DNA from: Fimbriimonadales bacterium
GTDB lineage: Bacteria > Armatimonadota > Fimbriimonadia > Fimbriimonadales > JABRVX01
Assembly (NCBI GenBank): GCA_045862955.1
Contig: BTVI01000005.1
Span: 39,765-103,764, forward strand
Direction of reading: 5' to 3'
Length of the DNA: 64,000 bases
Shown here: in pieces, positions 2,775 through 16,219 of the stretch
Position numbering within the stretch: the first letter of the stretch is position 1
Layout: every line of letters begins with the position of its first letter
The notes under the pieces: generated by a model
The model's database searches: none
Told to the model about the DNA's origin: nothing
The model's input: only the letters and a program-made list of their open reading frames with translations
Translations under genes and position numbers: made by a program

Positions 2775-2837
2775 AGGCATGCAACGCTCTCATGTCCGCA
2801 GCACCTATTCTGTCGGGTACCAATCCAGACATCTTGC

Positions 2838-3448
2838 CGTGATTCTGAGCTCGACGAGGCATGGCAACCGCTCATCCACCCGCGACGCGGCGAGCCACAC
2901 CGTCATGCTGAGCCTGTCGAAGCATGGCAACCACCCAACGCGCTCAGAGCGCAGGCCCGGCAACGTCTCCTCGAGGCGCGAGACCGTGATGGTAGGTCCT
3001 CTGCATCGGGACCACCACGCAGCCACGCGGGAGGACAGTCCCCACACCGTCATGCTGAGCCTGTCGAAGCATGGCGACCACCCAACGCGCTCAGGGCGCA
3101 GTCCTGGCAGCGTCACCTCGAGGCGCGAGACCGTGATGGTAGGTCCTCTGCATCGGGACCACCACGCAGCCACGCGGGAGGACAGTCCCCACACCGTCAT
3201 GCTGAGCCTGTCGAAGCATGGCAACCACCCAACGCGCTCAGGGCGCAGGCCCGGCAACGTCTCCTCGAGGCGCGAGACCGTGATGGTAGGTCCTCTGCAT
3301 CGGGACCACCACGCAGCCACGCGGGAGGACAGTCCCCACACCGTCATGCTGAGCCTGTCGAAGCATGCGATCGGTAGCCGCATGGCAGCAGATCAAAGAG
3401 TCGGGTTGGCGGCCCCTGCCCGCATGCTTCGACAGGCTCAGCATGACG
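2838..3448. repeat. REP-like array: 147-bp unit x3 bounded by CGTC-tagged palindromes CGTCATGCTGAGCCTGTCGAAGCATG, plus an inverted copy
   Basis: Direct copies start at 2901, 3048, 3195 and 3342 (period 147). Inverted copy at 3423-3448, degenerate copy near 2838. Confidence 0.93.
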
Positions 3449-3524
3449 GGCACTGGTCCTGCGTATCTCCTAAGGTCTCCACAGACGTCCACACCCTTCC
3501 GGGTGATGCTGGCAGGTGCTCCTA

Positions 3525-4016
3525 ATGAAGGGGAAGGTGCTGATCGGTCTCGGGCTGATAGTGGTCCTACTCCTGCTGCGCCTGCTGCTCTCGGCACTGG
3601 GCCCTGCACCCAACGACGTGGACCAGATTCAAGCGTTGATCGAGGAAGCGCGCATCGGTGCCGAGGCGGGCGAGCCGAATCGCATCACCGACTCGATTGC
3701 GGAGAACGCCGTGGTGCAAGGCATGACGCGGCGCGAGTTGGTACGTCTCATGCGTGCCAGTCTCCGCCAAGCAGAGAACATCCGAGTTACGCTCTCGAGG
3801 CCATCGGTGCGCGTCGAAGGCGACAAAGCTACGGCGCAGATTGACAAGGCGAGCGTGTCTTATACGTGGAATGGTATGGACACCAGTCTCGGGCTGACCG
3901 GCTTGACGCTGCACCTGGAACGGCAGAAGGTGCGGAAGTGGCTGGTGTTCACCGAGAGCCGCTGGCAGATCGTGCGCGCAACGGCGTCGGGAGCACCCAG
4001 TATGGGAGGTTTCTAG
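3525..4016 (+). CDS. Hypothetical membrane-anchored protein, NTF2/SnoaL-like fold likely
   Basis: N-terminal hydrophobic anchor, then DQIQALIEE...ITDSIAENA...VRVEGDKATA...WQIVRA. Confidence 0.65.
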   Translation: MKGKVLIGLGLIVVLLLLRLLLSALGPAPNDVDQIQALIEEARIGAEAGEPNRITDSIAENAVVQGMTRRELVRLMRASLRQAENIRVTLSRPSVRVEGDKATAQIDKASVSYTWNGMDTSLGLTGLTLHLERQKVRKWLVFTESRWQIVRATASGAPSMGGF

Positions 4017-4018
4017 GC

Positions 4019-4750
4019 GTGGCACTTGCACACGTGCGCTTCTTCAGCCAATCGCTGGAGAAGTGTTCCGAAATGGTAGTGTTGTTGCCCGAAGGGGATC
4101 GGCTCGGCCCCTACCCCGTGTGGTATCTGCTGCATGGCCTGAGCGACGATTGCACGGCCTGGAGCCGATACACCACCATTCAGCGCGCCGTGGAGGGGTT
4201 GCCTCTGGTAGTAGTCATGCCTGACGGCGGTCGGGGCTACTACACCGACAACGCACAAGGGCCGGCATGGGAGGCGCACTTCTTTCGAGACGTGGTACCG
4301 TTCGTCGAGCGCACCTTCTCTGTTAGGACGGAGGGAGCGTGCCGCGTCGTCTCGGGGCACTCGATGGGTGGATACGGTGCGATCAAGTTCGCGCTTCGTC
4401 GACCGGACATGTTCGTAGCCGCGGTGGGGCATTCGGGAGCTTACCTCGCCCCGTTCGAGCGAACGGATCCGGAGGGAGTACGCATCTTCGGCCGTGCTCC
4501 GGCGGGCGGGCCGGACGACCTGCTATCGCTTGTCGCCTCCGCTAGCGGTTCGGAACTCCCGGCGCTTCGGCTGGATTGCGGGACCGATGACTACCTCCTC
4601 CACCACTCGCGCAGTCTGCATGACAGGCTGATGGAACTAGGTATCGAGCACGACTACCACGAGTACGCCGGCGCCCACACGTGGGACTATTGGCAACAGC
4701 GCCTACCGCAGACGGTGGCATTCGTGGCCCGCCAACTAGGGCTACGGTAG
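4019..4750 (+). CDS. Alpha/beta hydrolase, putative esterase (tributyrin esterase/FrmB-like)
   Basis: YLLHGLSDD, VVMPDGG, GHSMGGYGA nucleophile elbow, DCGTDD and GAHTWDYW. GTG at 4019 follows GGAGGT. Confidence 0.9.
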   Translation: MALAHVRFFSQSLEKCSEMVVLLPEGDRLGPYPVWYLLHGLSDDCTAWSRYTTIQRAVEGLPLVVVMPDGGRGYYTDNAQGPAWEAHFFRDVVPFVERTFSVRTEGACRVVSGHSMGGYGAIKFALRRPDMFVAAVGHSGAYLAPFERTDPEGVRIFGRAPAGGPDDLLSLVASASGSELPALRLDCGTDDYLLHHSRSLHDRLMELGIEHDYHEYAGAHTWDYWQQRLPQTVAFVARQLGLR

Positions 4751-4773: not shown

Positions 4774-5511
4774 CTACCAGGAGACGAACTTCACATGACC
4801 GCCCACGTATAGCACGTTCGACCTTCGCACGCCGTGAACACTACGGGTTGCCGCTCCCGCAGCATAGTCCAGCCACAGCGCATCCTCGAGGTAGGGTGTA
4901 TCCGGCGCCAAACTTCGCAGCCGATGTCGCAAGGTGTGACCTTCGCCCTCATACATGCAACGCTGCAGACGAAAGTCCAACTCGTAGCTAGTGTACAGCG
5001 AACGATGGTCCTTCGGATCGTCCATGTCGGCCAGAAAGCTCGGGTCGGCGCGGAACCTATCCGCGGCACACCAGAAGACCTCGTCGGAGCGAGTGTACAT
5101 CTTAAGGGAGTCCCGCCAGAGCTGTGGTCGGCCTGCGATGAAGCATTTCAGGTTGTCATAGGGGGGCGGGTAGTCGTCCCGGTACTCTTCGGGAGGGGGC
5201 GCAGATGTACCGCCGCCCTCCCCTGGCTTCAGCGCCCAGTAATGGGTCTGGAGCGGATGGCACGGTAGCAGTCCTACGTGATCGTCTGCGTACATCACGC
5301 TAGCTTTGTGAAGCTGCGCAAGATTGGATGCGCAGCTCCCGGCTTGCGCTTTCGACTTGACGAAGTTGAGAACCGGCATGCTAATCGCGGCGAGCGCGAG
5401 CAGGATGGCGATGACCACGAGGGTCTCGACCAGAGTAAGCGCTCGTGAGCAGCAGCTTCGGCCCAGCGAGGTTGACCTAGTTACGGCTATTCCGGCCATA
5501 GGAGTTCGCAT
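4774..5511 (-). CDS. Prepilin-type N-terminal methylation/DUF1559-like protein (cassette 1)
   Basis: A|LTLVETLVVIAILLALAAI..P, CASNLAQL..MYADD, VFWC, YTSY and degenerate end HGVRRSNVLYVGGHVKF. Start uncertain. Confidence 0.8.
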   Translation of the reverse strand: MRTPMAGIAVTRSTSLGRSCCSRALTLVETLVVIAILLALAAISMPVLNFVKSKAQAGSCASNLAQLHKASVMYADDHVGLLPCHPLQTHYWALKPGEGGGTSAPPPEEYRDDYPPPYDNLKCFIAGRPQLWRDSLKMYTRSDEVFWCAADRFRADPSFLADMDDPKDHRSLYTSYELDFRLQRCMYEGEGHTLRHRLRSLAPDTPYLEDALWLDYAAGAATRSVHGVRRSNVLYVGGHVKFVSW

Positions 5512-6191
5512 CGCTTCCTGGCAACCTGCCCCACGTCATACTCCCCAGTGCAGTCGGTAGTGTAGTAGTAGTGCCTCTGGCAAGAAGTCGGGTAGCAATT
5601 GTAGTTCTCGTTGATGCACTGCGTAGCGTGATTCGCGAGCTGCCGGTACGACATCCCCGAGCCCCACGGCGCGCACGCGATAAGCTCGCACACGCGGTGC
5701 CCTTGTCTGCAATTCGAACGGTCTTCCAGCATTAGACCGATGCTGGCCCAGCCTAGTCCTACCGCTAGGAACAGGACAACGGCCCCAACGCTGCGCGCGG
5801 CAACGGTAGGACACTGGCTAGCCGACATCTGTCGCACCGTCGCTACAGCTATGACAGCGAAACAAGTCCAGACGCCGAGGCACAGCGGGCAGACCATGCC
5901 ACCGACGGCCATGGAATTCAGGGCCACCACCGCGACAGGCAGCCCGCAGAACGTGCAGAAGCGCCCTAGGCGCTGCCATATGCCGTGCTCGCCGCGAGCG
6001 AAAAGCTGAAGCACGAAGTAGCCGATGCCAGCGATTGGAGGCATGAACGCGATGAGTGTCGCTCCGACGAGAACAGCGCCCGAGCAGTCGCAGATGCGCA
6101 ACCCTCCGGCAGATGCGATCCTAGCAGCTAATAGGGAAAGGGAAAGTACTACCCCTACCCAGCACGCCCAGTTCGTAAGCTTATTCGTCAT
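5487..6191 (-). CDS. VKOR-like (CxC...CPLC) membrane protein fused to a Cys-rich C-terminal domain (cassette 1)
   Basis: Several hydrophobic segments with ICDCS and VCPLCLGVW, then a further hydrophobic segment and an 8-Cys tail. Paralog at 7422-8140. Confidence 0.7.
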   Translation of the reverse strand: MTNKLTNWACWVGVVLSLSLLAARIASAGGLRICDCSGAVLVGATLIAFMPPIAGIGYFVLQLFARGEHGIWQRLGRFCTFCGLPVAVVALNSMAVGGMVCPLCLGVWTCFAVIAVATVRQMSASQCPTVAARSVGAVVLFLAVGLGWASIGLMLEDRSNCRQGHRVCELIACAPWGSGMSYRQLANHATQCINENYNCYPTSCQRHYYYTTDCTGEYDVGQVARKRCELLWPE

Positions 6192-6242
6192 TCCTACACC
6201 TCTCCGTTGCATCCTCTGCGGTCTGCAGAGCATGCCTAGTCA

Positions 6243-6271
6243 AATATACAGCGTCTCGCTCCGCAGGTCAA
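6243..6271 (-). promoter_or_regulatory. Putative sigma70 promoter of cassette 1
   Basis: TTGACC-17 bp-TATATT on the minus strand, positionally conserved with 8197-8225. Confidence 0.7.
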
Positions 6272-6297
6272 GTTCTCACCGCGAAACTCCTGTAAAC

Positions 6298-6624
6298 CTA
6301 CACGAGGAAAAGGCTTGCGGTCAATCTGGTGCCTGGACTCACGTCAGCGTTTGCGGACCGAGGCGCAGGCGCAGATGTACCGCCGCCCTCCCCTGGCTTC
6401 AGCGCCCAGTAATGGGTCTGAAGCGGATGGCACGGTAGCAGTCCTACGTGATCGTCTGCGTACATCACGCTAGCTTTGTGGAGCTGCGCAAGATTGGATG
6501 CGCAGCTCCCGGCTTGCGCTCTCGACTTGACGAAGTTGAGAACCGACATGCTAATCGCGGCGAGCGCGAGGATGATCACCACTACCACCAGCAGCTCCAC
6601 AAGCGTTATTGCGCCTAGTCTCAC
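6298..6624 (-). pseudogene. Truncated duplicate of the 4774-5511 prepilin-type gene
   Basis: 6368-6570 matches 5198-5400 with about 4 mismatches, then runs into the cassette upstream region. The C-terminal domain is absent. Confidence 0.8.
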
Positions 6625-6791
6625 ACCACACCTCGTTTCGGCCGGCCCACATTGGCGGTGGGAGCAACTGCGGGCCTACCCGCCGCAGCCCCACGGTACC
6701 TCGCGGCAGGCGACGAAACTGGCAGTCTCGTTGTCGGATGCCTCCGCTGTGCCCGGCATCGGGCAGCTCGTGGTGCCAGCGTAGTTCAGGA

Positions 6792-7412
6792 CTAGTCCGC
6801 CCGCGTATACCGCACGCTGCCATCGAGGTAGAGCGCGTTGGCGCCGCCACCGTGGAACGTCTTCCAAGACGTCGAACCTGGTCGCGGCCACCACTGCGCG
6901 TCGCCGATGTAGGGGGTCTCAGCCGGTCCGCGCTTTGTCCTGTCAAGACGAATCGCGAGGGCCTGGCTTGGTCCCCACGATGACCTCATGTGGGCGAGAA
7001 CTGCCATCCGATAGCTGGTATACAGGTAGCTCTTGTCTTCTGGGTAGTCGAGGAAGACCACGAAGGGCTTCCCCCGATACCCGTCGGCGGGACACCAGAA
7101 CACCTCTCGGGACTTGGCGTAAACGGCTAGCGCGTCCCGCCACTCCCTGGGACGACCGATCACCTTGGTCTCCATCCTACCACGTTCGTCAACAGCCTTG
7201 ATAGACTGAATGGAGTGGCAAGGTAGCCAGCCGCTGTGGTCGCCCGCATACATCAGGACGGCCTTTCCGATCTGGCTCAGGTTATTTGCGCACCCGGACA
7301 CGAGGCTTCGGGACCTAACGATGTTCGCGACAGGCAGAGCGATAGCAATCAGCGCCAACAAGATCACCACGACGACCAATAGCTCGACGAGCGTGAAGGC
7401 TTTAGTCCTCAT
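6792..7412 (-). CDS. Prepilin-type N-terminal methylation/DUF1559 H-X9-DG protein (cassette 2)
   Basis: MRTKA|FTLVELLVVVVIL, CANNLSQIG..MYAGD, VFWCPAD, YTSY and HGGGANALYLDG (H-x9-DG). Confidence 0.88.
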   Translation of the reverse strand: MRTKAFTLVELLVVVVILLALIAIALPVANIVRSRSLVSGCANNLSQIGKAVLMYAGDHSGWLPCHSIQSIKAVDERGRMETKVIGRPREWRDALAVYAKSREVFWCPADGYRGKPFVVFLDYPEDKSYLYTSYRMAVLAHMRSSWGPSQALAIRLDRTKRGPAETPYIGDAQWWPRPGSTSWKTFHGGGANALYLDGSVRYTRAD

Positions 7413-7421
7413 ATCACACCG

Positions 7422-8140
7422 CTACTTCGGGGGTGGAGGCAGATGATGACAGCATTTCCTGCTATAGTACTGGCCGTACCACCACCCGTTGCCTGGGCAG
7501 TCCGGCTCCTCGTACACCCTCATGAAGCAGCTCATCCAGTCGCAGCCCGGGCCATTCCAGTCATAGCAGCGATCGTAACCATTTGGCAGTCTCAACGTCG
7601 AACCGCCGAGAGGGCCCTCAGGGTAGCAGCCGTAGTCACAGCAGTGGCCGTCCGGATCGCAATTTGGATTGGGCTCAGACATTGCGCCCACGCCCTGTGC
7701 GACCGCGATACCTACTACGAGAAGCACTACTACCGATGCGAGGCTACGAACCACCGAGAGGGGCTTGGCACGAGCCACGATCTCCCGCACGGTCGCCGCG
7801 ACTACGACACCGAAGCACACCCAGACGCCGAGGCACAGCGGGCAGACCATGCCACCGACGGACATGGAATTCAGGGCCACCACCGCGACAGGCAGCGCGC
7901 AGAACGTAGACAGGCGTGAGAAACCCTGCCATCTTCCGCGCTTCCAGCTGCCGAGTAGCTGGATGATGAAGTAGCCGATGCCCGCGATTGGAGGCATGAA
8001 GGTCATGAGTGTCGCCCCGACGAGGACTGCGCCCGAGCAGTCGCAGATGCGCAACCTCCGGCTGATGCGATCCTAGCAGCTAATAGGGAAAGGGAAAGTA
8101 CTACCCCTCCCCAGCACGCCCAGCTTGTGAGTTTGTTCAT
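7422..8140 (-). pseudogene. VKOR-like/Cys-rich fusion (cassette 2) with a 1-nt frameshift near 8055; may be a sequencing error
   Basis: MNKLTSWACWGGVVLSLSLLAARIASAGG from 8140 matches cassette 1. GCAACCTCCGG here versus GCAACCCTCCGG in copy 1. Downstream ORF has CPLC and a 10-Cys tail. Confidence 0.7.
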
Positions 8141-8196
8141 CACGCCTACACCTCTTCCGGGGCACCCTGTGCGTGCTGCAGAGCATGCCCAGTTAA

Positions 8197-8225
8197 AAGA
8201 TACGGCGACCGCTGTAAGATGTCAA
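8197..8225 (-). promoter_or_regulatory. Putative sigma70 promoter of cassette 2
   Basis: TTGACA-17 bp-TATCTT on the minus strand. Confidence 0.7.
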
Positions 8226-8356
8226 GTCCTCACCAAGAGATTCCTGTGACTCCGCATGAGGGTAAGGCTTGCGGCCACGCCCGTGCCTGGTTTCACGCTA
8301 GCGTCTCCGGCCCGTCGCACAGGCACAGCTTTCTGGCGGGAGAGCGTAGGTGTGAC

Positions 8357-8396
8357 AACCCTCACCCCGGCCCTCTCCCTTCGAAGGGAGAGGGAG
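8357..8396. repeat. Second REP-like palindrome family (CCCTCACCCC..CCCTCTCCC-n-GGGAGAGGG)
   Basis: Hairpin just after the prfA stop. Similar copies at 17969-18010 and 61790-61830. Confidence 0.8.
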
Positions 8397-8399
8397 GGG

Positions 8400-9461
8400 C
8401 TACTGTGCGGCAGCGGCGAGAAGCTTGGCTTGGTGATCGGCGATGAGGGCGTCGCAAAGGGGCTGCAGGTCGCCGTCCATGATGCCTGACAGGTTAGTGA
8501 TGGTCAAGTTGATCCGATGGTCGGTTACGCGGTTCTGGGGGTAGTTGTAAGTGCGTATCTTGTCGCTCCTATCACCGGTTCCGATGGCAGCCTTTCGGGA
8601 GGCGTCGGCCGTGGCGGTCTGCGCAGCCAGCTCGCGTTCATACAGCTTCGCGCGCAGTACCTTCATCGCCTTGTACTTGTTTTGTGCCTGCGAGCGCTCG
8701 TCCTGACACTGCACCACGATGCCCGATGGCTTGTGCACCAAACGGACTGCCGTCTCGTTCTTCTGCATGTGCTGCCCGCCCGCGCTGCTCGCACGGAAGC
8801 TCTCCCACTCGATATCCGCCGGATTGATCTCGACGTCCACCTCATCGGCCTCTGGGATCACTACCACGCTGGCAGCGCTGGTATGGATGCGTCCGCTGCT
8901 CTCGGTGGCGGGGACCCGCTGCACTCGATGCACGCCGCTCTCGTGCTTCAGCTGGCTGTATGCGCCTTTGCCCTCGATGTTGAAGGTGATCAGGCTTGCC
9001 CCGCCCATGTCGGACTCTTCGTAGTCCACCAGTTCGGTCTTCCAGCCTTTGCGTTCGGCAAAGCGGGCGTACATGTTGTACAGGTCTCGCGCAAAGAGGG
9101 CAGCTTCCTCGCCGCCGACCCCCGCACGGATCTCGATCACGACGTTCTTTTCGTCGTTCGGATCCTTGGGTAGCAGCATGATGCGCAGCTTGTCCTCGAA
9201 TTCTGCGATCTGGGCGCGGAGCCGGTCCACCTCGTCGAGGGCCATGTCCCTCATCTCGGGGTCATCCACCAGGGCTCGCGCCTCGGCGAGCTGCTCGTGG
9301 GCCTCTCGATAGGCGCGATACACGCCGACGATGTCCTCCAGCTCGGCCCGGATCTTCCCTAGCCGCTGCAGTTCCTTGGGGTTCGAGGCAACGTCCGGGT
9401 CCGCCAGCAGACGCTCTGCCTCTTCATAGCGCTCTTCTACCTGTTTCAGCTTGTCTAGCAC
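8400..9461 (-). CDS. prfA: Peptide chain release factor 1
   Basis: HESGVHRVQRVPATE (PAT specificity motif), GGQ, CQDERSQ and IRTYNYPQNRVTDHRI. Confidence 0.97.
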   Translation of the reverse strand: MLDKLKQVEERYEEAERLLADPDVASNPKELQRLGKIRAELEDIVGVYRAYREAHEQLAEARALVDDPEMRDMALDEVDRLRAQIAEFEDKLRIMLLPKDPNDEKNVVIEIRAGVGGEEAALFARDLYNMYARFAERKGWKTELVDYEESDMGGASLITFNIEGKGAYSQLKHESGVHRVQRVPATESSGRIHTSAASVVVIPEADEVDVEINPADIEWESFRASSAGGQHMQKNETAVRLVHKPSGIVVQCQDERSQAQNKYKAMKVLRAKLYERELAAQTATADASRKAAIGTGDRSDKIRTYNYPQNRVTDHRINLTITNLSGIMDGDLQPLCDALIADHQAKLLAAAAQ

Positions 9462-12769: not shown

Positions 12770-15700
12770 ATGAGTTCCCTGTTCCTAGAGACGCTGCAGA
12801 AGCGCTTGCTGATTTTCGACGGTGCGACCGGTACATCGCTGCAGGCCGCGGGTCTAACGGCTGCCGACTTCGACGGTCTGGAAGGCTGCAATGAGATACT
12901 GAATGCTACTCGGCCGGACGTGGTGGCATCTCTAGCACGGGGGTATTTCGAGGCAGGCGCCGATGCCGTGGAGACCAATAGCTTCGGTGCAAACTGCATG
13001 AACCTGGGCGAGTACGGCATTGCCGACAGGACGCGCGAGCTGAGCAGGTTGGCCGCGTCCATAGCGAAAGAGGTGGCAGCCGAGTTCTCGACACCTGATA
13101 GGCCACGGTTCGTGGTCGGCTCGATGGGCCCTGGGACGAAGCTGGTCACGATGGGGATGATCGGCTTCGACGAGCTGCTCGCCAGCTATCGTGAGAACGC
13201 ACTGGGGCTGATCGAAGGCGGCGCCGACGCACTGATGATCGAGACGTGCCAGGATCTGCTGCAAGCCAAGTGCGCGGTGATTGCGGCATGCGAGGCCTTC
13301 TCGGAGTCGGGTGGCAAGCTACCGCTCATCGTCTCGGTAACCATGGAAAGCAACGGCAAGATGTTGCTGGGCACCGAGATCGGCGCGGCGCTAACAACCC
13401 TAGAAGCGTTTCCGGAAGTGGATGTCATCGGCCTGAACTGCGCGACCGGGCCGCAGGAAATGGTAGCGCACGTTCGCTACCTGAGTGCGCACTCACAGAG
13501 GCCGATCAGCGTGCTTCCGAATGCCGGGCTTCCGCAAATGGTGGATGGCAAGGCACACTATCCGCTATCCCCCGAAGAGCTGGTGGAATACCACTCGCTC
13601 TTCGTGCACGAGTTCGGGGTGAACATCGTAGGTGGTTGCTGCGGGACTACCACAGAGCACATCCGTGCAGTGTCACAGGCATTGGCGGGTGCGATGCCCG
13701 CAAGGCGTAACCCTCACCATGTCCCCGCGTGTGCGAGCCTGTATCAGCAGGTGCCCTATCAGCAGGACACTAGCTTCTTGATCGTGGGTGAGCGGACCAA
13801 CGCCAATGGAAGCCGAAAGTTCCGCGATCTCCTGCTGGCAGGGGACTGGGACGAGATGGCGCAGATGGCACGCGATCAGGAGCGCGAGGGCGCACACGTG
13901 CTCGATGTGTGCATGGCATACGTAGGGCGAGACGAGGTCGCGGATGCAACCACACTGATCCCTCTTATCAATCAGCAGGCCACCATTCCGATCATGATCG
14001 ACTCCACCCAGCCCGAGGTCATGGAGGCGGCGCTAAAGCTGATCTCCGGCAAGCCTATCGTGAACTCGGTGAACTTGGAGGACGGTGGCGAGCGTCTGCG
14101 CAGAGTGCTGGCCCTGTGTCGTAGGTACGGTGCAGCAGTCGTAGCACTCACGATTGACGAAGAGGGCATGGCGAAGACCGTAGACCACAAGCTGCAAGTA
14201 GCCGAGCGGCTGCACCGGATCGCCACACAGGAATTCGGCATTGCACCCGAGGACATCTTCTTCGATGCGCTGACATTCACGCTGGGCAGTGGGGATGAGG
14301 AGTTTCGCGGGGCGGGCGCTAATACCATAGCTGCAGTGCGTGAAATCAAGAGACGCTGGCCGGAGTGCAATACGCTGTTAGGTGTCAGCAACATCTCCTT
14401 CGGTCTGAAGCCTGCTGCGAGGGTGGCACTCAACTCCGTGTTTCTTCACTATGCGTTGGAAGCAGGCCTGGACGCTGCCATCGTTCATGCGGGCAAGATC
14501 GTGCCTTTGAACCGCATTGACCCCGAGGTTCGGGAGATCGCCCGACGTCTCATCTTCGACGAGAGGGTGGATGGTGAGGACCCGCTGCACGCCCTCATGG
14601 CACTCTTTCGTGAAGACGTTGCGGTCGAGCCGACCACCGAGGACCTAACCGCCCTGCCTATCGAAGAAAGACTGCAGAGGCACATTGTGGATGGTGTCAA
14701 GACGTCGCTCGAGGCATCGCTCGATGAAGCGCTCACGACGTACGAACCGTTGGCTATCATCAACGAGATTCTGCTGCAAGGGATGAAGACGGTGGGCGAG
14801 CTTTTCGCCTCGGGCGAGATGCAACTGCCGTTCGTGCTACAGAGCGCCGAGGTGATGAAGCGCGCAGTGACATACCTGCAGCCCAAGATGCAGAAGGTCG
14901 AGGGGGCTTCTCGGGGCAAGCTGGTGCTAGCGACCGTCGCGGGAGACGTTCACGACATCGGCAAGAATCTCGTGGACATCATCCTTAGCAACAACGGCTA
15001 CGAGGTGGTCAATCTCGGTATCAAGCAGCCCATCGCGAACATCCTCAAAGCGTACGAGGAAACGGGCGCGGATGCGATTGGGATGAGTGGCTTGTTAGTG
15101 AAGTCCACGCTGATCATGCGCGAGAACTTGGAGGAGATGAACCGCCTCGGATTGTTCAGTGCGCCTGTGCTGTTGGGTGGAGCTGCGTTGACACGTAGCT
15201 ACGTGGAGAATGAGCTACGTAACATCTACCACGGCAAGGTGTTCTATGCGCAAGACGCATTCGAGGGATTACGCCTGATGGACGAGGTGATGAAGGGACC
15301 TGCCGCGATGGAGGAGCTGTATCGCAGGTCTGCCCCCACGACGCACTCGGAAGTCAGGCTGCCAACGGCGACAGCGGGCACGACCGACACTCGACGCAGT
15401 GACGTGTCCCCCGATGTGCCTATTCCCGAACCGCCGTTCTGGGGCGTCCGTGTGGTCGACGACATAGATGTGTGGGACGTGTACCCCTTCGTAAATTCCG
15501 AGGTCGCTCTGTTTCGCGGGCAGTGGCAGATGCGCAGAGGCAAGCTGACGAAGGAGGAGTTCGAACGGCTACTAGAAGAGGTTGCACGCCCGACCTACGA
15601 GCGACTGAAGAAGCAGTGTGCAGAGGAACGACTGTTAGTGCCGAAGGTGGTGTACGGGTATTTCCCGGCCCAGTCCGAGGGTAACGACCTGATCGTGTAC

Positions 15701-16219
15701 CACGAGGATCGCAAGACGGAACGCCTGCGGTTCACGTTTCCTCGGCAGGCGTCGGATCGCAGGCTCTGCTTGGCGGACTTTTTTGCTCCCAAAGACAGTG
15801 GCCGAATGGATGTCGTGTGCTTCACCTGTGTAACGGTGGGCAGCCGCATCTCCGAGTACGAGAGAGAGCGGTTTGCCGCAGGAGACTATCAGGAGTACCT
15901 GTACCTCCACGGCATGGGAGTGGAAGTTGCGGAAGGCTTGGCCGAGTACTGGCACAAGAAGGTGCGAGAGGAGTTGGGGATCGCAGACAAGGATGCCAAA
16001 GAGATCCGACTGCTGTTCAGCATGAGCTACCAGGGGGCACGCTATAGCTTCGGCTATCCGGCATGTCCGAACCTGGAGGACCAGCGGCTCTTGTTCGAGC
16101 TGCTCGACCCCAGCCGCATCGGGGTGGATCTGACCGAGGAGTGTCACATGGTGCCGGAGCAGTCCACGTCTGCGATCATCTGTCATCACCCGGAGGCTAG
16201 GTACTTCAACATCCGGTAG
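12770..16219 (+). CDS. metH: Cobalamin-dependent methionine synthase
   Basis: GLNCATGP, GGCCGTT, GERTNANGS, GDVHDIGKNLV and RYSFGYPACP motifs; 1149 aa. Confidence 0.97.
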   Translation: MSSLFLETLQKRLLIFDGATGTSLQAAGLTAADFDGLEGCNEILNATRPDVVASLARGYFEAGADAVETNSFGANCMNLGEYGIADRTRELSRLAASIAKEVAAEFSTPDRPRFVVGSMGPGTKLVTMGMIGFDELLASYRENALGLIEGGADALMIETCQDLLQAKCAVIAACEAFSESGGKLPLIVSVTMESNGKMLLGTEIGAALTTLEAFPEVDVIGLNCATGPQEMVAHVRYLSAHSQRPISVLPNAGLPQMVDGKAHYPLSPEELVEYHSLFVHEFGVNIVGGCCGTTTEHIRAVSQALAGAMPARRNPHHVPACASLYQQVPYQQDTSFLIVGERTNANGSRKFRDLLLAGDWDEMAQMARDQEREGAHVLDVCMAYVGRDEVADATTLIPLINQQATIPIMIDSTQPEVMEAALKLISGKPIVNSVNLEDGGERLRRVLALCRRYGAAVVALTIDEEGMAKTVDHKLQVAERLHRIATQEFGIAPEDIFFDALTFTLGSGDEEFRGAGANTIAAVREIKRRWPECNTLLGVSNISFGLKPAARVALNSVFLHYALEAGLDAAIVHAGKIVPLNRIDPEVREIARRLIFDERVDGEDPLHALMALFREDVAVEPTTEDLTALPIEERLQRHIVDGVKTSLEASLDEALTTYEPLAIINEILLQGMKTVGELFASGEMQLPFVLQSAEVMKRAVTYLQPKMQKVEGASRGKLVLATVAGDVHDIGKNLVDIILSNNGYEVVNLGIKQPIANILKAYEETGADAIGMSGLLVKSTLIMRENLEEMNRLGLFSAPVLLGGAALTRSYVENELRNIYHGKVFYAQDAFEGLRLMDEVMKGPAAMEELYRRSAPTTHSEVRLPTATAGTTDTRRSDVSPDVPIPEPPFWGVRVVDDIDVWDVYPFVNSEVALFRGQWQMRRGKLTKEEFERLLEEVARPTYERLKKQCAEERLLVPKVVYGYFPAQSEGNDLIVYHEDRKTERLRFTFPRQASDRRLCLADFFAPKDSGRMDVVCFTCVTVGSRISEYERERFAAGDYQEYLYLHGMGVEVAEGLAEYWHKKVREELGIADKDAKEIRLLFSMSYQGARYSFGYPACPNLEDQRLLFELLDPSRIGVDLTEECHMVPEQSTSAIICHHPEARYFNIR

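Follow-up and report, generated by a model that had tools for sequence, protein, structure and literature searches.

An eight-cysteine miniprotein encoded with a DUF1559 pseudopilin, and its local fusion to a VKOR-like membrane domain, in Fimbriimonadia

The stretch of DNA analysed here, hereafter the window, comprises 64,000 nucleotides (nt) of contig BTVI01000005.1 from a Fimbriimonadales bacterium (assembly GCA_045862955.1, positions 39,765 to 103,764 of the forward strand). This study concerns a duplicated locus for Cys-rich membrane proteins and pilin-like proteins, lying between a gene at 8400-9461, which we take to be prfA from its GGQ motif, and a convergent esterase gene (3866-4750). 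The interval holds two minus-strand units, A and B, 1953 nt apart (Table 1). In both, a sigma-70-like site is followed by a membrane gene and then by a prepilin-type gene that abuts or overlaps it, as an earlier note made from the sequence had described. That note had also assigned to each membrane protein a CDC motif, a CPLC motif, a further hydrophobic segment and a Cys-rich tail. All of these are present in both units, the tails measuring 75-80 amino acids (aa) and following the fifth hydrophobic segment, but the gene of unit A is frameshifted: relative to unit B and to a further copy in this genome (C49), it has lost 1 nt near position 8056, leaving helix 1 stranded in a short frame. This lesion had been overlooked, as had a truncated third pilin gene between the units, which is the relic of a duplication.

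The conserved promoter ascribed to each unit was recovered. Two sigma-70-like sites were found against 1.0 expected from shuffled sequences, and the motif also precedes the C49 copy and another one, C2. Genes for a secretin, for PilM and for two T2SSE ATPases also lie in the window, in agreement with the claim that type IV pilus/type II secretion machinery is present. The statement that the membrane parts are near-identical in DNA proved too strong, units A and B being 82% identical in a stretch of 284 nt and 90% identical in one of 101 nt, with no exact block longer than 45 nt; at the protein level, their cores are 74% identical. DNA contigs from four other studies reach every one of the 30 bins of the locus and are interrupted near 8056; the deletion in unit A may be either real or an assembly error. 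RNA runs contained only 0.06-0.19 of the locus words. Contigs from two other runs join promoter A (8176) to the start of gene B (6220), with a short side of 30 letters; this joint is possibly a further recombinant. A 45-nt palindromic element resembling a repetitive extragenic palindrome (REP), at 8355-8400, has many copies, clustered across the genome.

Table 1. Features of the two-unit locus (window coordinates)
Feature	Position	Strand	Remarks
Promoter-like site, unit A	8197..8225	-	TTGACA-17-TATCTT; conserved in C49, C2, unit B
Membrane gene A, 5' part (helix 1)	8003..8140	-	45 codons, then stop; separated by 1-nt deletion ~8056
Membrane gene A, 3' part: VKOR-like helices 2-4 (CDC, CPLC), helix 5, 8-Cys domain	7422..8054	-	
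8-Cys-family domain, unit A (10 Cys)	7425..7664	-	69% identical to C2 copy
Pilin A, 206 aa: prepilin N-terminus, DUF1559, H-X9-DG C-terminal motif	6792..7412	-	
Truncated pilin-B-like gene, 108 aa	6298..6624	-	92% identical to pilin B over 239 nt
Promoter-like site, unit B	6243..6271	-	TTGACC-17-TATATT
Membrane gene B, intact, 234 aa: VKOR-like four-helix core, helix 5 with signal-peptidase-like end, 8-Cys domain	5487..6191	-	
8-Cys domain, unit B	5490..5714	-	predicted all-beta, pLDDT >90 in core
Pilin B	4774..5499	-	start 5499 or 5511, overlapping gene B stop; partner-pilin clade member

A search of 41 relatives with protein B returned weak matches to the tail only. The relatives of the tail are standalone genes of 115-150 aa, each with a hydrophobic leader and lying directly 5' of a pilin gene. 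Iterated profiles retrieved this miniprotein from 16, then from at least 23, of 228 genomes of class Fimbriimonadia (at most 19-20 candidates were scored per genome, making the genome count a lower bound). A wider sample of 401 genomes of the phylum yielded it in 11, four of them outside the class; a match in G537 was not reproduced on rescanning. An alignment of 35 members, with a mean column identity of 19%, has two cysteines present without exception and another six with a conservation of 90% or more. The tails of all copies in the genome under study belong to this one 8-Cys family rather than to unrelated domains. Thus, the tails have indeed diverged, as the earlier note stated (22-69% identity), but they are not free-form and share a scaffold. 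An AlphaFold2 model of the domain is small and all-beta (mean pLDDT 83.8); no Foldseek match reached E 0.001 and the best VIA-align Z was 3.3, which need not signify a new fold. The profile had no sequence match in the PDB, the ESM Atlas gave no match, and no Pfam family was found in more than one of the 35 members.

Double-glycine-leader peptides go with C39 peptidases. Both the leader and the peptidase are absent from the two window units and found in a minority of relatives; by eye, a double-glycine-type leader follows the signal peptide in five members (L064, L067, L093-L095). Outside the class (L103:1570-9756, L105, L104:14424-14771), 8-Cys-like genes with signal peptide and double-glycine leader occur without a pilin and neighbour LolA-like/DUF2092 and LolA-like-C39 genes; in L104 a LuxR-type gene lies upstream.

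Loci were retrieved with the 8-Cys peptide alone, and 43 distinct scored open reading frames (ORFs) entered the count of pilin neighbours. An ORF was called paired if a same-strand pilin started between -60 and +300 nt from its stop, pilins being recognised with a profile built from 17 of the partner pilins themselves. A pilin lies directly downstream on the same strand in 36 of the 43. Of the remaining seven, two have the pilin immediately 5' of them, two sit close to the end of a contig (one of these outside the class), two more come from outside the class and lack a pilin, and one is a false match. Because the loci were retrieved by peptide, the use of partners in the pilin profile helps detection and does not create the adjacency. 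Tandem arrays of peptide-pilin pairs occur in three genomes (G144, G184, G190). The recurring core is therefore a two-gene module, an 8-Cys miniprotein with signal peptide plus a DUF1559/H-X9-DG pseudopilin, and not the VKOR fusion. The latter was considered as the defining unit and rejected: it is a rare local variant, and the pair recurs without it. Hence, the expectation that Cys-rich tails with pilin neighbours would recur in Armatimonadota, a small disulfide-rich protein and a DUF1559-type pilin being joined in one cassette, was correct for tail and pilin and not for the fusion.

On profile evidence the window pilins are assigned to the DUF1559/H-X9-DG prepilin-like proteins. Pilin A scores above the cut-off with PF07963 (22.8 bits; cut-off 21.2), PF07596 (26.6 bits) and TIGR04294 (25.1 bits). 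Pilin B reaches 18.6 bits with PF07963, below the cut-off, and has Ala instead of Gly at -1; its aligned H-X9-DG motif carries G for D, and neither PF07596 nor TIGR04294 matches it. Related pilin genes number about 50 in the genome (55 motif matches). A profile of the head region, made from 22 partner pilins encoded in other genomes, gave 48 matches here, led by the five cassette pilins with 93-124 bits against 67 for the next one. In a FastTree phylogeny of 31 partners and 37 other pilins, the outgroup taken from this genome only, 28 of the 31 partners form one clade free of the 37 others (support 0.889); an interim IQ-TREE tree, without support values, places 30 of 31 together. Peptide and pilin distances are weakly correlated (rho 0.245, 26 pairs; 29/5000 permutations). 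A 187-aa protein encoded at 802-1365 on the minus strand has a pilin-like body and an H-X9-DG-like end, with no prepilin motif and no Pfam match; motif-less pilin-like partners resembling it occur in L026, L028 and L034.

Other pilin neighbourhoods show comparable arrangements. At G000:C6 ~76950-78600 (L016:2948-4587), an unrelated secreted Cys-rich gene (~124 aa) is followed by a pilin and a 146-aa membrane gene, without NCBIfam match, and L045:9059-10460 is arranged likewise. A different module (L044:3479-5542, L046:11830-13874) consists of a CxxC protein, a pilin, a Cys-rich small protein and a ~220-aa secreted protein. Since these modules are unrelated and similar, the pattern of a pilin with a Cys-rich partner is wider than the 8-Cys family.

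The fusion itself was found in this genus and in one unplaced protein: in this genome, in G001, on one metagenome contig together with a pilin (L087/P0007) and in a distant protein, P0010 (29% identity), whose genomic context was searched for and not found. Within the 401-genome sample, only this genome matched the N-terminal part. For residues 1-150, the nearest ESM Atlas clusters have VKOR members (scores 0.93 and 0.89; TM-scores 0.64-0.66), below the bar at which the Atlas assigns a name. The loop Cys and the CPxC motif are invariant in seven of seven sequences, including P0010 at ~30% identity; C101 and C104 of the latter motif align with the CxxC of the genome's own VKOR. In a PF07884 search of the genome, two fused copies rank second and third (11.8 and 11.6 bits) after a canonical VKOR-DsbA gene, to which the fused protein corresponds in the CxxC, the motif after the loop and the fifth helix. 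An AlphaFold2 model of the whole fusion, from seven sequences, has five helices and low confidence (pLDDT 46.6); Foldseek and VIA-align returned generic helical rows for it, with no VKOR among the matches listed. Identification of the domain as VKOR-like comes from motifs and Atlas look-alikes, with no match to a curated family, and at best it would work like VKOR. The VKOR-like N-terminal domain of the earlier note thus stands as a resemblance; neither curated models nor this structure show family membership. Because the genome carries a separate canonical VKOR-DsbA gene, the fused copies look dedicated.

The link to oxidative folding drawn in that note finds a parallel among unfused modules. 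We examined 25 such loci with flanks of ~1.5 kb, leaving out six tandem-array genes, for which no CxxC thioredoxin-like neighbour was seen. An adjacent CxxC thioredoxin-like gene is present at seven, directly after the pilin in six cases; in the seventh (G093), a membrane-plus-DsbA gene immediately precedes the peptide. Pfam support is over the cut-off for one of the seven, between E 7e-4 and 0.09 for five, and absent for the last, which is truncated. The G093 order is VKOR-like-DsbA, peptide, pilin, the first gene showing the VKOR motif layout without a Pfam VKOR match; deletion of its DsbA part would yield the fusion seen in the window. Two larger clusters (L107:2758-6096, L106:4817-9120) contain C39 peptidase, DUF1573-like, VKOR-like-DsbA, pilin and double-glycine-leader peptide genes.

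Four copies of the membrane gene were identified in this genome (A, B, C49 and C2), plus a fifth unit at a C49/C63 junction (141-nt overlap) where only the tail end and the pilin are left. Across the five copies, core identity ranges from 46 to 90%, with the tails as variable as stated above, a pattern of conserved carrier and variable C-terminal domain. The core of unit A is 90% identical to C49 (synonymous divergence, dS, 0.19) and 54% to C2 (dS 1.39). Its tail, conversely, resembles that of C2 (69% identity) more than that of C49 (27%). Helix 5 likewise matches C2 (nonsynonymous divergence, dN, 0.09); pilin A is also closest to the C2 pilin, by a small margin (58% vs 53%). Unit A is a mosaic in which tail and pilin travel together. 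The exchange point lies between helices 4 and 5, the four-helix core recombining independently of helix 5, tail and pilin. As this point precedes helix 5, the latter behaves as the peptide's own signal peptide; by eye, small residues occupy -1 and -3 at its end in six of six full-length proteins. Purifying selection acts on the core, where dN/dS lies between 0.22 and 0.45 for every one of the ten pairs. The two most similar pairs of tails have dN/dS of 0.16 and 0.25, values that indicate old conserved types rather than rapidly selected variants; positive selection on the tails was rejected, dN/dS being below 1 with no sign of an arms race. The polymorphic cassette proposed in the earlier note holds insofar as shuffling occurs among paralogues; immunity genes, unrelated toxin domains and arms-race values are missing. 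The C2 copy is frameshifted as well (2 nt), leaving two of four copies intact, and the two copies on C4 of G001 are deleted or frameshifted. The cassette is often born and often lost.

The interpretation we favour builds on what was observed, namely gene pairing, the 8-Cys scaffold, the partner-pilin clade, the fusion and the independent shuffling of the four-helix core. The 8-Cys miniprotein would acquire its disulfides in cis, be released by signal peptidase and then attach to its cognate pilin within a type IV filament, a proposal to which we give an even chance. In such a scheme, the precursor would insert with five helices, helix count and basic inner loops placing the tail outside the membrane. 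Disulfide transfer would run from the tail to the loop cysteines, the CxxC and a quinone, without DsbA. Signal peptidase I would cut after helix 5, as the small residues at -1 and -3 suggest, and the released miniprotein would bind the head of its own pilin as cap or cargo. PilM, the secretin and the ATPases of the window would form the filament machine. The paralogous pairs could then constitute a set of interchangeable surface tips for adhesion or ligand recognition, gained by duplication and lost by frameshift. Whether Fimbriimonadia have such a pilus-tip library, coupled to a self-oxidising precursor whose VKOR-like core is swapped between cassettes like a cartridge, strikes us as possible and rather doubtful. 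The same degree of doubt attaches to the joint claim that each DUF1559 pilin loads a cognate miniprotein of new fold and that a stripped-down VKOR oxidises its fused substrate without DsbA.

Several findings weigh against this interpretation. The Pfam VKOR model gives 11.2 bits (E 0.43) for unit A and nothing for B, the curated PF07884 cut-off being 27.5 bits, and hhalign assigns a probability of 0.3% to the match with the genome's own VKOR and of 0.2% to that with the G093 protein. The loop motif is CxC in six of seven sequences and a single Cys in P0010, with shorter spacing than in the genome's VKOR; no Ser/Thr is found at the aligned VKOR position, an invariant Thr45 lying three residues later. 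At 18 of the 25 unfused loci, no oxidase gene is adjacent within the flank read. Tails of the C49 type lack two of the scaffold cysteines, and no pilin is in view for three distant 8-Cys members from outside the class. In only 10 of 26 pairs do peptide and pilin have the same nearest neighbour; kinship inflates the correlation between their distances, which shared descent alone could produce. Finally, two of the four copies that have a 5' end are frameshifted and both copies in G001 are broken, for which reason the fusion may be decaying.

Such decay would bear on another possibility, in our view improbable: that the VKOR-like part is inactive, left over from a deletion that joined a VKOR-DsbA gene to the peptide gene, and now provides only promoter, start and membrane leader. 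The unfused order in G093, the abnormal loop motif, the frameshifts in half of the copies and the frequency of deletions would all fit such an origin. They have to be set against the constraint on the core in every pair compared and against cysteines kept unchanged as far as P0010. The pair could also be a pilus-borne capture device of the sort suggested for other DUF1559 proteins, pilin and miniprotein together forming a binding site for a nutrient or metal and the cysteines perhaps acting as metal ligands. To this we assign little probability. It draws on the Pfam name of DUF1559, SBP_bac_10, and on the frequent flanking of DUF1559 genes by signal-peptide genes in Planctomycetes, as described in the available part of PMC8567305. 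The genes around the modules, however, are housekeeping ones, among which neither a transporter nor a catabolic gene nor a regulator recurs, and the DsbA-like neighbours favour disulfides over metal ligation.

It is also conceivable, and fairly unlikely, that the peptide is released as a bacteriocin-like or signalling molecule, the pilin serving as export adaptor, receptor or sensor. The five double-glycine-type leaders would be in keeping with this, as would C39 peptidase genes in the L107 and L103 clusters (E 5e-16 to 1e-16), Rhs/YD-repeat-like fragments seen by eye beside three loci (L108:8528-9661, L026:2-559, L103:11927-13684) and the divergence of the tails (22% mean identity). Yet most members, and all fused ones, have neither leader nor C39 neighbour; no small immunity gene recurs 3' of the pilin, and the low dN/dS of the tails points the other way. 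A toxin-immunity reading is weak for want of both an immunity gene and positive selection. The immunity role suggested for the pilin in the earlier note was rejected as unlikely in view of its prepilin anchor and conserved head: the gene downstream of the tail codes for a membrane-anchored pilin of one clade, not for a cognate immunity protein. Polymorphic toxin-immunity systems resemble the cassettes in combining a conserved carrier with a variable C-terminal domain and differ in that here a single tail family is used and no immunity gene is found. As to double-glycine/C39 peptides, the likeness is confined to a minority of 8-Cys members, which have the leader motif and C39 genes nearby; a Sec signal stands in front, the C39 peptidase is not fused to an ABC transporter, and none occurs at the window locus.

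The fused protein is best compared with VKOR and its fusions to thioredoxin/DsbA (PF07884). The accessible portion of PMC4555120 gives four conserved cysteines, two of them in the loop, as VKOR hallmarks. A four-helix layout (as predicted for the fused protein), one or more cysteines in a loop that is followed by a P-x-A-x-x-G motif, a CxxC preceding helix 4 and a fifth helix that connects to an outer domain are common to both. The outer domain, however, has a thioredoxin fold there and is an 8-Cys miniprotein here, and the window protein departs further in its CxC or single-Cys loop, displaced Ser/Thr, sub-threshold Pfam score and multiple copies. Among pilin-partner systems, TcpF binds the type IVb minor pilin TcpB (PMC10120004, in the part available); this pair and CofB/CofJ (PMC6048534, likewise) share with ours a Sec-exported protein encoded with the pilin that would select it. 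The window modules differ in being many small paralogous two-gene pairs away from the pilus operon, and no sequence or fold link to either pair was established. In Geobacter, too, a pilin and a small partner, PilA-N/PilA-C (PMC11046646, as far as accessible), are encoded side by side. Among PDB sequences, the partner-pilin profile matches the Geobacter pilin helix best (7tgg, E 1.5e-11, first 64 positions only); the window pilins, in contrast, have their own 170-aa head, and their partner is disulfide-rich without fold match. By family (PF07596, TIGR04294), these pilins fall with the DUF1559/SBP_bac_10/H-X9-DG proteins. In the accessible parts of two accounts (PMC8567305, PMC4807772), no partner, subfamily or function is described for DUF1559, the domain being merely listed in what is available of PMC4807772 and PMC5352709. 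No account of the 8-Cys/pilin module was found in the literature covered, mostly open-access main texts.

Pilin-partner systems are thus of a known kind; new are an 8-Cys domain family without Pfam or PDB match, offering a compact scaffold, and an undescribed enzyme-substrate fusion. DUF1559 pilin-like proteins number dozens to hundreds per Planctomycetes genome, besides the ~50 found here, and their function is not established; a defined pilin subfamily with one small cognate partner makes a role testable with two purified domains. If correct, a VKOR-like domain fused to its substrate rather than to thioredoxin would represent a new route of oxidative folding.

Elsewhere in the window, positions 2800-3450 hold 147-nt tandem repeats containing a 27-nt element, which is found in inverted orientation as well and seems to be present again near 15700 (region ~15600-15850).

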